A model generated the notes under the pieces. The model saw nothing but the letters and a program-made list of their open reading frames with translations, searched no databases and was not told the DNA's origin. Shown here one piece after another: positions 1 to 64,000 of a DNA stretch of 64,000 nucleotides (its first letter is position 1; each line of letters starts with the position of its first letter). A program made the position numbers and the translations under genes. This DNA is from Alphaproteobacteria bacterium (GTDB lineage: Bacteria; Pseudomonadota; Alphaproteobacteria; Rs-D84). Location of the stretch: contig WRHR01000003.1 of NCBI GenBank assembly GCA_009783145.1, positions 23,019 through 87,018 on the forward strand, in the 5' to 3' direction.

Positions 1-19
1 TACTGGTTCCTCTGGCTTT

Positions 20-637
20 TCAATATCTTTCAAAAGTTCCCACATTGCGGCTCTTGCCTGTTCGGAATTGTAATTCCGCCCCCCCCCCAACATTGCCCTG
101 GAACCTGTCCAGCATATCCAGCAAATTATAAATCGTCAGCACGGCGCAAGAGTTATCTTTCTTGTCCGAACATTGTTGGACATTTTCACTATATCCCCAA
201 CCATAATTCGGAAAAATCCCAAGTATTAAATCCTTAATATCTTTGCGCAAATCTATCCCATAGGAATTATTGAAATAAAACTTTTTATGGATTTTATCTA
301 CTCCCAAAGCAACGGCATGCGTAATATTCGGATACTTTTCGCTGGGTATGGAAAGCTCTATCAGCAAATAATCCTTTGCTTGATTTATGTGTTTTAATAG
401 CGCCTTTCCAAAGGAAACCAAAGTGTCATAATCCAATCCATATTTCACATCTTTTGGGTCTTTTGCGGGAATCGTGCTTGTAACATCCAGCCATTTGGGA
501 CGATAATCATCATCAAATAATATTTGCTTTAAATCTCCCATAGAGATAGAGCCAACAGATTCTTCTATATTCAATAAACGCTCGTCATATTTTTTCATAA
601 TCTTTCCCCTGTTTTTGTTGTCCTTTATAAAGGACAA
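20..637 (-). CDS. CE-clan (Ulp1/C48-like) cysteine protease-like protein, putative host-interaction effector
   Basis: Ordered His (THAVALGVD), Gln-Gln oxyanion and Cys (VQQCSDKKDNSCAVL) resemble the CE-clan H..D..Q..C arrangement. The locus is AT-rich. A C10 homopolymer at 79-88 encodes GGG near the C-terminus. Confidence 0.45.
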   Translation of the reverse strand: MSFIKDNKNRGKIMKKYDERLLNIEESVGSISMGDLKQILFDDDYRPKWLDVTSTIPAKDPKDVKYGLDYDTLVSFGKALLKHINQAKDYLLIELSIPSEKYPNITHAVALGVDKIHKKFYFNNSYGIDLRKDIKDLILGIFPNYGWGYSENVQQCSDKKDNSCAVLTIYNLLDMLDRFQGNVGGGAELQFRTGKSRNVGTFERY

Positions 638-681
638 CTATTACTAATGACACAAACTAACCACTGGCACCGACACTGACA

Positions 682-1314
682 CTACTTGCAGCCAATGATT
701 TTTCTAATTTCTTCTATGCCGATCTTTTTCTCTGCCGATGTTTCCAAAATCTGGGTGCATGCAGCTGGCCGCTTTCCTGCCCCCTTGTGGGGCGGGATAG
801 AATTGCTTGATGATTTATCATCTAGCAATTCTTGGGTGGGGGGAAATCCCCACAACTCAGCCTTTAGTTTCGCAATGTTTGATTTATTCGACTTATCGAT
901 CTTTGTCAGAACGACTTGATAAGGAATTCCGTTTTTATCGCAGAAATCCATTATTTCCAGGTCGGATTTTTTAAGCTCGTGCCGCGAATCAATCAGAATA
1001 AACAACAGCTTTAATTGGCCACGGGTCAGCAAGTATTCTTCCAGGCGTGCCAGCCAGCGCTCGGTATCCGCCTTGGAAATCTTGGCGTAGCCATAACCCG
1101 GCAAATCCATAAGCGCCAAGCGGTCGCCCCAGTTGAACAGATTAAGGCTTTGCGTGCGACCGGGAGTTTTTGAAGTCCGCGCAATCACGCTGCCCGCGAT
1201 AGCATTTACCAATGACGACTTGCCGACATTGGACCGCCCGATAAACGCATATTCGGGAAACTGCGTACGCGGCAGGGATTTAACTGTTTCAAAACTTCCA
1301 ATAAATTTTATCAT
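682..1314 (-). CDS. engB: Ribosome biogenesis GTP-binding protein EngB/YihA
   Basis: G1 motif GRSNVGKSSL, DLPGYGYA and TKIDK motifs; likely start at MIKFIG (the ORF track extends to 1386). Confidence 0.85.
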   Translation of the reverse strand: MIKFIGSFETVKSLPRTQFPEYAFIGRSNVGKSSLVNAIAGSVIARTSKTPGRTQSLNLFNWGDRLALMDLPGYGYAKISKADTERWLARLEEYLLTRGQLKLLFILIDSRHELKKSDLEIMDFCDKNGIPYQVVLTKIDKSNKSNIAKLKAELWGFPPTQELLDDKSSSNSIPPHKGAGKRPAACTQILETSAEKKIGIEEIRKIIGCK

Positions 1315-1327
1315 TGTAAAAACCTTT

Positions 1328-61415: not shown

Positions 61416-62087
61416 ATGCGAGTAAAAGACGGTATTATTATTGCCAATGCAGCGGATAAAATAAAAGCAGAATTGATAGATTTTCTGCTTGATTGCCATG
61501 ACAATTTTGACCTCATTGCCAACGAGACCCCTTTTTTGCAAAGCGAGCGAATGGCGGATATGATTGCTATTCGCAATGGCATAACAATGGGGTTTGAGAT
61601 AAAAAGCAATACAGACGACTTGCGGACTCTTTCCCAGCAATTGAGTGATTATACAAGGGTGTTTAATGCGGTTTATCTGGTATTTTCTGCAAAGTTTGCT
61701 GGCAGTCCAGAAATTGAAAAATTGCCCAAGACTATCGGTCTTTTTACTGTTGATACCGACAATAATCTAAAATTTCGCCGCAAAGCGGCAACAAAGGTTA
61801 TACTGGATAAATCCGCGATGCTTTCCTTGTTATGGAGAAAGGATTTGGAGACTCTTGCTCCCAGCAAGAAGAAAGCGGACTTTGACGATTTACGAGATTA
61901 TGTGCTGAGAAACTGCCCAATAAAGACCATTCAAGAACAAATTATAAAATCACTGCAATCTCGCTATGGGAATGGATATAAGTTGATGATACACGAAAGG
62001 GGCGAGAAAACTACCATAGAAGACCTGTTTTACATTACAGGTCTAAAAAAGCACCAGATTGTCTTCGCAGATACAAGCATTGCATAG
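61416..62087 (+). CDS. PD-(D/E)xK nuclease-fold protein (sce7726/MmcB-like)
   Basis: ADMIAIRNGITMGFEIKS gives a D..x12..E-x-K arrangement; AT-rich island. Confidence 0.35.
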   Translation: MRVKDGIIIANAADKIKAELIDFLLDCHDNFDLIANETPFLQSERMADMIAIRNGITMGFEIKSNTDDLRTLSQQLSDYTRVFNAVYLVFSAKFAGSPEIEKLPKTIGLFTVDTDNNLKFRRKAATKVILDKSAMLSLLWRKDLETLAPSKKKADFDDLRDYVLRNCPIKTIQEQIIKSLQSRYGNGYKLMIHERGEKTTIEDLFYITGLKKHQIVFADTSIA

Positions 62088-63165
62088 TCATATATAGATT
62101 TGACCGCACAGCAATCCAATATGCTGGTGCTTTGCCTTCTGGGGCACCGTTTGCCTTTTCAGCAATTCGTCTGTCCCCCTCGGTTAAAAACTCAGTTATA
62201 GGTGCATATTCGGACGAACCAATAACCTGCTTTGCTAATCCTACATAATCCGAACTGGTATTTCGCCCATTCCCTCGTCTAAACCAGTATTTTATGGGTT
62301 GCTTTGTTCGTTGGTCTCTTTCAATATAATCTATCCTTGCATACCATCCGGCACCACCCATTTCATATCTTTTGGGATATATGGATGAGAAATCCCCGTG
62401 AAAGACTTTGCTTCCTAATTCGGTCTTTACACAATCAGAGACTTGATTTTCAGTAATATCAATACTGCCCGCAGTTTTGCTTATACTACTAACCGATGCA
62501 GGGAAACTTGAAGAAACAGGTATAAGTGCTTTTATATTTGAAATATCTATACCAGATAATCCGCTCTTAATTTCATTTTCCTTATAGTCCCGAACAAAGT
62601 CAAAATCAAGAATAACAAACAATTTGCCGTTGCCAATAATGTCAGTAATAAATTTGATAACCTGTGGCAAAGATGGTGCAAAAGCAGGCAATTTTACAGC
62701 AATGTAATCAAAATTAGCATTTAATACTTGTATTTGTGCTTGAACCTCTGTCATATGGGCAGCATTAAATTGAATGACAGGTATAACCTGCTTCTTGAAT
62801 TTATCGTTCTTTTGTAAGAAATCAGACCAAGATTGATACCCGTTTGACGGGTCTAATAATCCGCCACCTTTACTGCTAAGACCGTCATATTTCAATGAAG
62901 CATCGTCTGTTATATCCAGAATGAACCGCCTGTCGTCCATAAAATCTAATATTTTTTGGATTTTGTTGTATATATCGCCCTGTCTTCTTTTGCCCCGCAA
63001 ATTTTCGTCTTTACAATTTTTTGTATAGGTGTATCCCAACTCCCCTGTCATTTCAATTATAGGTAAAATGTTATCTTTGACTGTATCGTTCAGGGCATCA
63101 TAAGCATTCACCTCTGACGGGCGAGTTTTTAAGATTGGGAAATAGCAGTATCTTGGCATACTCAA
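62035..63165 (-). CDS. Hypothetical protein, partner of ImmA-like peptidase (possibly sce7725-like)
   Basis: 376-aa ORF, 4-nt overlap with the upstream ImmA/IrrE gene; convergent with and 3'-overlapping the PD-(D/E)xK gene. Confidence 0.35.
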   Translation of the reverse strand: MSMPRYCYFPILKTRPSEVNAYDALNDTVKDNILPIIEMTGELGYTYTKNCKDENLRGKRRQGDIYNKIQKILDFMDDRRFILDITDDASLKYDGLSSKGGGLLDPSNGYQSWSDFLQKNDKFKKQVIPVIQFNAAHMTEVQAQIQVLNANFDYIAVKLPAFAPSLPQVIKFITDIIGNGKLFVILDFDFVRDYKENEIKSGLSGIDISNIKALIPVSSSFPASVSSISKTAGSIDITENQVSDCVKTELGSKVFHGDFSSIYPKRYEMGGAGWYARIDYIERDQRTKQPIKYWFRRGNGRNTSSDYVGLAKQVIGSSEYAPITEFLTEGDRRIAEKANGAPEGKAPAYWIAVRSNLYMTMQCLYLRRQSGAFLDL

Positions 63166-63737
63166 TACTCCGATATTAGACCAAGTTTATAAGCACGATA
63201 GCGGACCGCCGGTGTGGATAAATTAAACTTGTCTGCCAGTTTCTTTACTGTATTCTCTCCCCTTTTAATACAATCGTTTACAATCGTTTCAGGCATCAAT
63301 AAGTTTGAAGCAAAATCATTTGCCTCCCGTTCATCTGGATTTGTATTCTCGTCCCTGAAAAATATCAGGTCGTGCTGAAATCTTCCATTTGCATATTTTT
63401 CGCGGTGTTTTACATAATGTCCTAATTCGTGAGCGATTGTAAATCTTTGTCGCTGTTCGCTTTCATATTGATTTATATAAATACACCACTGGTTATCTAT
63501 CTGTTCTAGAAAACCAGAAGCGGATTTACCCAAATCCTTTTTTATCAATTTAATACCAAATATCTTTTCAACAACACTGGCAATATCCAATGGGTCGGTT
63601 TTTATTTTGAGTTCTTTCGCTTTTGCCCAGATTTCAGAGACAGACATTGTTTGAGGTGTTTGTTTCTTTGCCACAGAACGGGAAGTGGCATTCCCGCCGG
63701 AGAGAAAGTTTTGCCAATTAGATAAGTCTGTTGCCAT
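63162..63737 (-). CDS. ImmA/IrrE-family metallo-endopeptidase
   Basis: HELGHYVKH HEXXH motif plus EREANDFASNLLMP downstream. Confidence 0.7.
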   Translation of the reverse strand: MATDLSNWQNFLSGGNATSRSVAKKQTPQTMSVSEIWAKAKELKIKTDPLDIASVVEKIFGIKLIKKDLGKSASGFLEQIDNQWCIYINQYESEQRQRFTIAHELGHYVKHREKYANGRFQHDLIFFRDENTNPDEREANDFASNLLMPETIVNDCIKRGENTVKKLADKFNLSTPAVRYRAYKLGLISEY

Positions 63738-63979
63738 TATCTCCCTCCTTTCTTTTTCGTGGTTGCTTTTTTCTTTGCTGCGGGTTTAGGTTTTATAGTC
63801 GCAGCAGCATCCTTCTGTATCTGCTCAATAATCTTATTTTTTGTTAGTTCATATTCTTGCGATATGAATCCACGGATTCGGGTTTCGTCTAATTCTTCTG
63901 CTACATAATCCGACAAGTTTGTTTTAAGATAATCCGCAACTTTCTTGTCAAAATATATGCCAAACCATTCGGATTGCAT
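63737..63979 (-). CDS. Small hypothetical protein with Lys/Ala/Pro-rich basic tail
   Basis: Start overlaps the ImmA stop (ATGA); C-terminal AAKKKATTKKKGGR tail. Confidence 0.3.
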   Translation of the reverse strand: MQSEWFGIYFDKKVADYLKTNLSDYVAEELDETRIRGFISQEYELTKNKIIEQIQKDAAATIKPKPAAKKKATTKKKGGR

Positions 63980-64000
63980 TTCTTCGTGAATGATTTTCCG

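Follow-up and report, generated by a model that had tools for sequence, protein, structure and literature searches.

Inverted heptamer arrays at gene junctions and inside reading frames of an alphaproteobacterial genome

The window analysed here is a 64 000-nucleotide stretch of contig WRHR01000003.1 (positions 23 019 to 87 018) from assembly GCA_009783145.1, listed as Alphaproteobacteria bacterium. It is 88% coding, with 11.6% non-coding sequence, and includes uvrB, tsaE, mnmE, ruvC, mltA, dciA, lpxK, fabG and gyrB. Between and through these genes run short palindromic elements, most of them facing pairs of tandem arrays of a 7-nt unit. A first reading made from the sequence alone (the sequence-only reading) had counted at least 10 families and about 25 copies in the 64 kb, and sequence reading, alignment of family E and self-BLAST brought us to much the same figure: array families A to J are present in approximately 24 copies, mostly as inverted pairs, of which 14 were counted (table 1). 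At least 10 different heptamer units occur in the window, mostly A/T-rich and free of G3 tracts. With GC-rich palindromes included, the elements cover approximately 3.7% of the window at a density of about 0.45 elements per kb, and they favour non-coding sequence, about 18 of 28 elements lying in or overlapping the 11.6%. The earlier view that this load goes beyond that of typical repetitive extragenic palindromes (REPs) and bacterial interspersed mosaic elements (BIMEs) holds in part; the load of Rickettsia palindromic elements (RPEs) in Rickettsia conorii is probably comparable, and that of the window is probably not unprecedented.

The arrays are strongly period-specific. A strict detector (at least three copies, +1/−3 scoring, periods 4 to 12 scanned) returned 16 period-7 arrays and one period-8 array in the window, with none at periods 4–6 or 9–12. 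Twenty dinucleotide shuffles yielded no arrays, and 78 unrelated bacterial loci (1.35 Mb) yielded a single period-7 array. Tandem Repeats Finder (TRF) reported 73 rows for the window, with period 7 dominant and many arrays at 100% unit identity, while an inverted-repeat scan found 110 pairs, the longest of which were almost all inverted heptamer arrays; together the two scans recovered every array of the sequence-only reading. Its statement that all the elements derive from arrays of 6–8-mers stands for the arrays of period 7 and 8 but not for the GC-rich palindromes, which are not tandem. Exact inverted repeats of at least 11 nt were also tried as a statistic but did not discriminate (window 56, shuffles 25, controls 38 per 64 kb), and the period-7 statistic was used instead. 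The array pattern is genuine and well above chance.

Some contigs of other assemblies do break at or near the elements (L085 ends within C2, and a contig in the European Nucleotide Archive (ENA) ends at 59048), as might be seen if the arrays were assembly artefacts or chance low-complexity sequence. However, array-spanning sequence is 100% identical in contigs of four other assemblies, from ENA (two samples), JGI and Logan. All five overlapping contigs agree in this way, though the assemblies are perhaps not wholly independent of one another; the next closest MnmE is just 67% identical. Open reading frames (ORFs) also run uninterrupted through the elements and align with homologues. Because the arrays are identical across assemblies and the ORFs stay open, they are not assembly artefacts, and with shuffles and controls at or close to zero we count this explanation, which the sequence-only reading had itself raised for chance sequence, as refuted. 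The ENA contig, from the same organism, stops at the edge of a low-GC block (59049–64000; GC 0.38–0.41 versus approximately 0.50) that carries no heptamer arrays and encodes a Beta_protein (PF14350, 62035–63165) and a Peptidase_M78/IrrE-like protein (63162–63737). This block is probably a recently acquired island, and its lack of arrays fits their accumulation in resident DNA.

The window UvrB is 79–80% identical to proteins from metagenome-assembled genomes (MAGs) that bear the names Candidatus Enterousia sp. and ‘Alphaproteobacteria bacterium’, and NCBI lists the window MnmE under an alphaproteobacterial MAG. The AACTGA repeats had first suggested Beggiatoaceae or cyanobacteria as the source, which these matches contradict. 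Within the Alphaproteobacteria, Ca. Enterousia is a genus incertae sedis, and the names of its species suggest gut or faecal sources. We compared the window with the mnmE or uvrB neighbourhoods of nine relatives (loci with L numbers). Six of the nine carry different heptamers and three are nearly array-free, so the comparison that the sequence-only reading had proposed shows arrays that are patchy, and different in sequence, between close relatives. The array-rich loci, mostly with other heptamers, include L086 (at least 12 arrays in 21 kb), L129 (approximately 18 in 12 kb), L088 (8 in 3.4 kb), L004 (6 in 22 kb) and L128 (5 in 21 kb); L130 has one array, and L087 and L003 have none. L130 (GCA_964619545.1, CAZUED010000001.1) is a highly syntenic and extremely compact relative in which the uvrB/tsaE, mltA/dciA and ruvA/mnmE junctions overlap or measure 0–4 nt and TsaE, DciA, RuvC and MnmE are shorter, making it a natural ‘empty-site’ reference for the window.

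Ten of the window elements abut or extend over predicted start or stop codons. The contacts read from the sequence alone hold for the uvrB and tsaE starts and stops, the lpxK start and the DUF374 stop, and likewise for the mltA stop, the dciA start and the T2SSE start and stop; the T2SSF start and the hyp159b stop are contacted too. In one arrangement, a stop codon and the next start codon are placed at the base of one stem; these stop–hairpin–start cassettes (A1, A2, B2 and C2) lack a Shine–Dalgarno (SD) sequence. An SD-like motif is absent before five genes adjoined by an array arm (dciA, uvrB, T2SSE, T2SSF and lpxK), and many other genes have one. In H, where one arm encodes the signal peptide of the 5712–6191 gene as had been proposed, the ribosome-binding site (RBS) and ATG are displayed in the loop (−42.8 kcal mol−1); the same architecture recurs in L004 (16531–16668). 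Spacers in DNA that is 88% coding are very short (0–4 nt in L130 and L003), so contact with both codons is largely what any insertion would produce.

All 11 elements folded as RNA were predicted to form very stable hairpins (−22 to −114 kcal mol−1, z −6 to −14.6), in mRNA or single-stranded DNA. A1 (−21.6 kcal mol−1, z −7.4) and A2 (−29.7 kcal mol−1, z −7.6) are 88% identical over 61 nt, C1 and C2 (the latter at −35.6 kcal mol−1) are 87% identical over 69 nt, and the B2 units are 100% identical. In C1 and C2, AACTGAR forms the distal arm and the arm adjoining the ATG is its reverse complement. D1 (−44.8 kcal mol−1) carries variant units that are compensated in mirror order, as does A2, and E4 folds at −47.7 kcal mol−1. 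Rfam 15 at the gathering score matched only two tRNAs in the window; at E ≤ 0.1, the window and seven loci gave tRNAs and sub-threshold hairpins resembling miRNA precursors (approximately 30 bits against gathering scores of 70–100), which are spurious.

Two of these junctions have features of their own. The start of T2SSF can be read in two ways: the called TTG (50585) lies directly 3′ of the array, and an ATG at 50622 opens a nine-codon upstream ORF whose TAA lies inside (TTGCTAA)n, the array having stops in all frames. Upstream of uvrB, a box (GATTATAATGNGATTATATT) is conserved in three species (window 36076–36100, L003 3225–3245, L004 9950–9970) and could represent a promoter or an SOS-type operator. 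Only in the window does the C1 hairpin come between this box and the ATG; L003 and L004 lack it.

Ten elements lie in frame inside ORFs, among them mnmE, the rluD-like gene, tsaE, fabG, lpxK and signal peptides, in keeping with the earlier suggestion that the copies are tolerated in translation. The F1 arms, which code for ETRNAKRETR and RVSRFAFRVS, bracket the conserved NKCD G4 motif of MnmE (−65.9 kcal mol−1), at positions that vary among homologues and with no net gain in length. Those of G surround a conserved S4-domain segment of the rluD-like gene (−64.7 kcal mol−1), with a net gain of approximately 4 aa, while D3 replaces an equal-length stretch of fabG and leaves the protein no longer than before. 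D2, on the other hand, is a 10-aa loop insertion in TsaE (GKWQMANGKC) that the L003 orthologue lacks and in whose place L004 has a different insertion. True RPE-like insertion and length-neutral overwriting of variable segments thus both occur.

Inverted repeats that are not arrays were also seen inside ORFs at 48035–48100 (fabG, with 15-nt arms around 36 nt of coding sequence), 40465–40584 (aspS), 10023–10169 (hyp480) and 5601–5630 (the rluD-like gene), and close inverted repeats may tend to arise quite generally in the coding DNA of this genome. A DNA module, ATGAAAAA-(TTTGCTC)n-TTGTGCCTGCGGCNCCGGC, is common to the window (2883–2945) and L086 (6831–6895), where its hosts are non-homologous: a Peripla_BP_6 lipoprotein and an outer membrane β-barrel protein, respectively. 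The module is read in different frames and gives a hydrophobic signal peptide both times.

Within the window, elements at separate loci share long identical tracts. D3 matches one D1 arm at 34 of 34 nt, variant unit included; E1 matches E5 at 38 of 38 nt and E3 matches E4 at 30 of 30 nt; the F2 arms are 93% identical to those of F1; and the array end TA(CATTTGC)n is common to all four D copies. These identities, the perfect unit identity of many arrays and the differences between relatives bear out the recently active spreading proposed in the sequence-only reading. The elements have been copied recently between loci, evolve in concert, are variable between lineages and are tolerated in translation. 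E1 and E2 lie within a set of three tandem paralogues (441, 416 and 480 aa; 6760–11160) that have no Pfam match and have E elements between them; a 134-nt repeat of 90% identity (8047–8180 versus 9486–9618) shows that these two copies were duplicated along with the genes.

Orthologous junctions and loops record the same variability. At mltA–dciA, L130 has a TAATG overlap, the window TAA–(ATTTACG)n hairpin–ATG and L128 TAA–(ATTTATG)n hairpin–ATG. At two of the three unit positions that align, C:G in the window corresponds to U:A in L128 in both arms, and at the third L128 has an unpaired variant. This shows concerted evolution of units and arms or, alternatively, repeated colonization of the site by sister families. 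The uvrB–tsaE spacer is 3–4 nt in L003 and L130, contains (TAATTGA)n in L004 and is filled by E6 in the window. L086 has in-frame hairpins in uvrB and ruvA, and after its mnmE stop an exact (TAACTGA)n array and a C-type hairpin; TAACTGA is exact in no other relative. The MnmE proteins of relatives have in-frame heptamer arrays at recurrent variable loops (L129 7726–7844; L128 10098–10130 and 11199–11231; L088 703–736 and 1805–1836). At one C-terminal site L128 has (AAATCAT)n and L088 has (AAATCAG)n, each unit differing by a single base. In L129 the arrays flanking the MnmE NKxD motif are non-complementary, and their presence in the two loops that hold the complementary F1 arms in the window marks these as hot spots open to independent colonization.

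The GC-rich palindromes form a second component. K2 (−114.3 kcal mol−1, z −14.6) has a related insertion at the same MnmE site in another species (P0002/L086), and the GTAGGGGC-type palindrome of dciA has related copies in tsaE and mnmE of L086. DciA measures 128 aa against 107–108 aa in relatives (approximately +20 aa from the palindrome), and RuvC 174 aa (+14 aa), where L128 and L130 have 160 aa and L086 and L087 have 157–158 aa. The TTGTCATTGCG motif flanking ruvC, which the sequence-only reading had set beside the array families, did not survive as a family of its own: its five matches against 2.2 expected are not significant, and it belongs to the GC-rich palindromes.

Table 1. Palindromic and array elements of the 64 kb window. 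Strand is given for I and J only (+); the remaining elements are listed as (.).
Element	Position	Strand	Structure	Context
A1	29108..29165	.	(ATTTACG)n / (AAATCKT)n hairpin, loop GGGAGTC	exactly fills spacer from mltA stop to dciA start
A2	52376..52456	.	(ATTTACG)n hairpin	hyp197 stop to T2SSE (GspE-like) start, no SD
B1	49406..49474	.	(AATTAGC)n hairpin, loop GGGAGTT	T2SSF stop to fabD start
B2	50576..50735	.	(CAATTAG)x5.7 and (TAATTGC)x4.7 arms, 80-nt loop	T2SSE stop to T2SSF start
C1	36005..36075	.	(AACTGAR)n hairpin	uvrB 5′ untranslated region (5′UTR), ends 3 nt before ATG
C2	57137..57203	.	(AACTGAR)n hairpin	overlaps DUF374 stop, ends 3 nt before lpxK start
D1	31677..31783	.	(ATGGCAA)n / (CATTTGC)n hairpin	divergent spacer, Exo_endo_phos gene / AMP-binding gene
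D2	33737..33768	.	single (CATTTGC)x4 array	in frame in tsaE
D3	47999..48032	.	single array	in frame in fabG
D4	56475..56503	.	degenerate (GGCAAAT)n array	inside lpxK
E1	8125..8275	.	(AGAGTAnn)n / (ACTCTnnT)n octamer arms, GC side hairpins	hyp416 stop to hyp441 start
E2	9560..9717	.	family E composite palindrome	hyp480 stop to hyp416 start, within tandem gene duplication
E3	30788..30920	.	family E	between convergent secB and Exo_endo_phos genes
E4	33436..33545	.	family E	between convergent AMP-binding gene and tsaE, overlaps tsaE stop
E5	47290..47412	.	family E	between convergent hyp191 and fabG
E6	33970..34020	.	half family E element	fills spacer from uvrB stop to tsaE start; provides GTG start and AGGAG
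F1	23174..23285	.	30-nt (CGCGAAA)n arms, 100% complementary	in frame in mnmE
F2	46506..46683	.	(CGCGAAA)n arms, 119-nt loop	both ends of divergent gyrB/hyp191 spacer
F3	56124..56144	.	weak (CGCGTCTG)x2.6 array	lpxK stop to lpxC start
F4	57664..57682	.	weak (CGCGAAATC)x2.2 array	within DUF374 gene
G	5473..5600	.	(ACAGAGC)n arms	in frame in rluD-like gene
H	6145..6270	.	(AAAGAAT)n arms	signal peptide of 5712–6191 gene and upstream hyp159b stop
I	2892..2923	+	single (TTTGCTC)x4.6 array	lipoprotein signal peptide of Peripla_BP_6 gene
J	4298..4331	+	single (CACGAAT/AACGAAT)x4.9 array	in frame near Peripla_BP_6 C-terminus
K1	15116..15285	.	GC-rich palindrome without tandem units	intergenic after bipA
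K2	24056..24198	.	K palindrome, approximately 30 aa in frame	mnmE N-terminal variable loop
dciA palindrome	28858..28932	.	GC-rich composite GTAGGGGC...GCCCCTAC	in frame in dciA
ruvC tail palindrome	27802..27881	.	TTGTCATTGCG copy at 27844	overlaps ruvC stop
ruvC upstream hairpin	27086..27121	.	TTGTCATTGCG...CGGAATGACAA, GC-rich, not a tandem array	upstream of ruvC

Eukaryotic foldback (FB) transposons also have long inverted arms of short tandem repeats around a variable central loop that can hold unrelated DNA; they are kilobase-scale and transposase-associated, so the likeness is architectural only. A 2008 study by Elhai and colleagues is said to have dealt with small dispersed repeats (SDRs) and heptamers in cyanobacteria. 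The nearest published relatives in bacteria are the heptameric simple sequence repeats (SSRs), which, in a 2007 survey by Mrazek et al. as summarized in PMC4692102, are over-represented in many bacteria. Xanthomonas campestris has 186 GGGAATC heptamer repeats, with 70–75 convergent pairs per genome that have stem-loop potential; polymerase slippage was put forward as a hypothesis and no function was found (Rehm et al. 2015, PMC4692102). Like the Nostoc GGGGAYT repeats, a case of short tandemly repeated repetitive sequences (STRRs), they consist of tandem 7-nt units, typically in about four copies, with a strong intergenic bias near ORF ends, and vary in sequence and length between close relatives; the convergent Xanthomonas pairs could form a stem-loop or cruciform (PMC4692102). 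The window shares the period-7 excess, the non-coding bias at ORF ends and the paired convergent arrays. It differs in having at least 10 mostly A/T-rich units in place of one dominant G-rich, G-quadruplex-capable unit, which it lacks, and in arms that are read in frame, lie beside conserved coding motifs and make up exact stop–hairpin–start cassettes, whereas the published repeats are under-represented in ORFs.

A second group of heptamers sits near start codons. Direct TAACTGA repeats end a few nt before starts in Beggiatoaceae, cyanobacteria and Bacteroidetes (MacGregor 2015, PMC4679880), and a Nostoc study describes heptamers that overlap start codons (bioRxiv 10.1101/2022.06.06.494920). 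These, like the window arrays, comprise 2–6 units at or near starts, often without an SD, with a patchy cross-phylum distribution, and family C of the window has the unit AACTGAR. The TAACTGA repeats, however, are direct ‘forward’ arrays with one inverted case in the BOGUAY genome (PMC4679880), whereas those of the window are mostly inverted pairs, have a reverse-complemented arm next to the ATG and coexist with many unrelated heptamers; C1 and C2 do not present forward TAACTGA sets before the start.

Among palindromes, the Rickettsia RPEs are of about 150 bp, fall into ten families and are often in frame in genes (PMC10969869). The window resembles them in its alphaproteobacterial host, in having about ten families of 100–150-bp palindromes without a known transposase, and in elements that sit in frame in unrelated housekeeping genes at positions that the fold tolerates (K2, the dciA palindrome and the ruvC tail). 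The K family follows the RPE layout, with K1 intergenic and K2 in frame in mnmE. RPE arms, by contrast, are not tandem arrays of short units, while the heptamer arms of the window often replace sequence and lie 50–120 nt apart around host sequence. REPs, BIMEs and the REP doublets (REPINs) linked to REP-associated tyrosine transposases (RAYTs) in gammaproteobacteria are likewise abundant short palindromes within operons and at 3′ ends, with families that evolve in concert within a genome and a potential to stabilize mRNA (PMC3116915). They are nevertheless strictly extragenic imperfect palindromes of 20–40 nt, carry a conserved head motif and are tied to RAYTs (PMC3116915), whereas the window has arms built of tandem arrays, ten elements in ORFs and no head motif shared across families, and no RAYT was seen in it or among the Pfam-annotated genes of related loci. 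On the sequence evidence, the elements are best described as an inverted-pair form of the heptameric SSR/STRR class alongside GC-rich, RPE-like palindromes. Our literature search returned no account of this alphaproteobacterial clade or of multi-family inverted heptamer arrays in ORFs.

Related arrays extend well beyond the Alphaproteobacteria. A metagenome scan with a 19-mer common to all four D copies gave 38 loci, of which approximately 20 come from soil or peat, as high-GC contigs that carry (ATGGCAA)n–loop–(TTGCCAT)n hairpins and further heptamer arrays. Terriglobia-type high-GC contigs with the family D heptamer hairpin include L091, L098, L100, L113, L117 and L119; in L100, part of a Terriglobia MAG, the hairpin (3990–4075) follows a signal peptide directly and in frame (DFKWQMANGK...). 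The E-family 28-mer gave no matches in the metagenome scan, and the JGI sample with the host organism seems to be missing from that collection; the family D 19-mer gave none in a viral scan. In IMG/VR viral contigs, arrays of at least three AACTGAR units occur in 89 stretches (L131–L210), several per phage genome. An ATG-initiated ORF of at least 80 aa lies within 60 nt downstream of 47 of 75 distinct arrays, compared with 10 of 75 in the reverse orientation, which carries the Beggiatoaceae TAACTGA observation over to phages.

This orientation bias is among the evidence for regarding the arrays as selected cis-regulatory RNA elements, which would bind a translation factor (ribosomal protein S1, for example, or another single-stranded-RNA-binding protein) for SD-independent initiation, the inverted form being a regulated or coupling version kept by function and not by selfish spread. 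The start-proximal TAACTGA and Nostoc heptamers (PMC4679880; bioRxiv 10.1101/2022.06.06.494920), the SD-less cassettes, the RBS and ATG shown in the loop in H and L004, and pairing kept by compensatory change across species all sit well with it. It is harder to reconcile with at least 10 unrelated heptamers in the window and 56 across all loci examined, too many for one factor, with an ATG-adjoining arm that reverse-complements the AACTGA array of the ‘forward’ kind, with the many copies between convergent genes or inside ORFs, and with L130, L003 and L087, which have no elements at the same junctions. We consider selection of this kind improbable. The arrays could also be the work of a dedicated, horizontally transferable ‘array-writing’ activity, present too in phages, Terriglobia, cyanobacteria and sulfur bacteria, that places 7-nt arrays in translation start regions as SD-independent initiation signals. 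In the alphaproteobacterial clade of the window these would have been converted to stop–hairpin–start cassettes bringing the terminating ribosome to the next AUG (by shunting or obligate coupling), and the process would also seed new signal peptides and protein loops; we hold this speculative scheme to be somewhat less probable still.

Perfect arrays in the first codons of secreted and lipoprotein genes (I and H, and others in L004 and L086) recall contingency loci, where changes of one 7-nt unit shift the frame or alter the 5′UTR and so switch genes on and off; heptanucleotide and 7-bp SSRs are reported to act in this way in Haemophilus (PMC2651432, PMC8262952). Such phase variation, which would concern mainly the signal-peptide and start arrays, seems very unlikely here: the genes affected are mostly housekeeping (uvrB, mnmE, fabG, lpxK, tsaE and gyrB), length polymorphism was not seen among four assemblies and most arrays are paired hairpins in spacers.

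The explanation that we favour, to which we give roughly even odds (about 0.5), is that these are lineage-specific, recently active palindromic repeats spread by slippage and templated copying rather than by cut-and-paste transposition. The 7-nt arrays would first be created and homogenized by replication slippage. Short-patch templated copying, through template switching, quasipalindrome correction or ectopic gene conversion, would then spread an array to other loci and write its reverse complement nearby, after which the arms would co-evolve. Copies would survive only where the compact genome permits, in intercistronic spacers, 5′UTRs, 3′ ends, signal peptides and variable surface loops. At junctions, the stem could keep an SD-less start hidden, so that the downstream cistron would be translated only after a ribosome completing the upstream one had arrived at the stop beneath the stem and melted it, giving tight translational coupling, and copies at 3′ ends might act as stabilizers or terminators. 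Templated copying is favoured because equal-length replacement occurs (fabG D3, the mnmE F1 arms and, nearly so, the rluD-like G arms, all counted as length-neutral), because arms lie around resident conserved sequence, because single arms equal one arm of a pair and because variant units are compensated.

[quoted passage not shown] Candidate enzymes are a RAYT/IS200-type Y1 transposase acting on single-stranded DNA hairpins, or a reverse transcriptase for which RNA would be the intermediate, a route that has reportedly been proposed for cyanobacterial SDRs. The families are multi-copy with conserved ends and loops. Net insertions relative to orthologues are seen in the uvrB 5′UTR, the tsaE loop, mnmE K2, dciA and the ruvC tail. 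The distribution among close relatives is patchy, as with gain or loss of an enzyme, and the K and GTAGGGGC palindromes are common to the window and the L086 species. In-frame insertion in surface loops further resembles RPEs (PMC10969869). Yet the F1, F2, G, H and B2 arms enclose 51–119 nt of resident conserved host sequence and so were not inserted as single hairpins, several copies are equal-length replacements, and single arms exist (D2–D4, I and J). Neither the 64 kb nor the Pfam-annotated genes of the related loci (approximately 70 kb, some 55 kb of which is array-rich) yielded a transposase, RAYT/IS200-like protein or reverse transcriptase, so that the associated enzyme that the sequence-only reading had suggested looking for did not turn up there. 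Pfam searches of 20 unannotated ORFs for the same enzymes found none, returning instead DciA, Beta_protein and Peptidase_M78, and no insertion sequence was seen in the window and related loci. Neither a REP-type GTAG head nor clear terminal inverted repeats or target-site duplications were found in the window elements; A1, A2 and the L128 copy have TAA at both ends, but TAA is part of the unit itself. We judge mobilization in trans unlikely on balance, and still a serious rival because of the conserved ends and loops and the occurrence across phyla and in phages.

Several observations weigh against slippage and templated copying. Slippage alone leaves unexplained the recurrence of the same heptamer, the GGGAGTC loop and the same ends at unlinked loci, as well as the ATGGCAA hairpins in Terriglobia and the AACTGAR arrays in phages, and a dedicated mobilizing activity or sequence selection may be at work. 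There are net insertions (TsaE +10 aa, MnmE K2 approximately +30 aa, and ruvA and uvrB of L086). No polymorphism of length or presence was found across the four assemblies, all identical and possibly non-independent. Translational coupling is purely what we infer from the arrangement: gene starts are predictions, positions being taken from contig gene calls and Pfam matches with Pfam run on the remaining ORFs, and elements also occur at places that leave no room for coupling, between convergent or divergent genes and within ORFs.

Paired convergent heptamer arrays (Xanthomonas), start-proximal heptamers (Beggiatoaceae and Nostoc) and in-frame palindromes (Rickettsia) are all published; what is new here is the diversity of families, the stop–hairpin–start cassettes and the in-frame arms. 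The window opens no new category; it presents, in unusually rich and tractable form, a phenomenon that still wants an explanation. Over-representation of heptameric repeats in some bacteria has been known since 2007, with neither a mechanism nor a function established for it (PMC4692102, PMC4679880). Since close syntenic genomes are either array-rich or nearly array-free, a comparison of gene content could identify the factor responsible, the candidates being a defect in replication or repair, a lost hairpin nuclease (SbcCD, for example) and a mobilizing enzyme. Arrays are written into essential proteins (around MnmE NKxD and in the RluD S4 domain) and into signal peptides, and orthologous junctions display concerted compensatory change, so repeat dynamics can remodel both proteins and operon junctions. 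The stop–hairpin–start cassettes offer a model, open to direct test, in which structure enforces translational coupling and no SD is needed.

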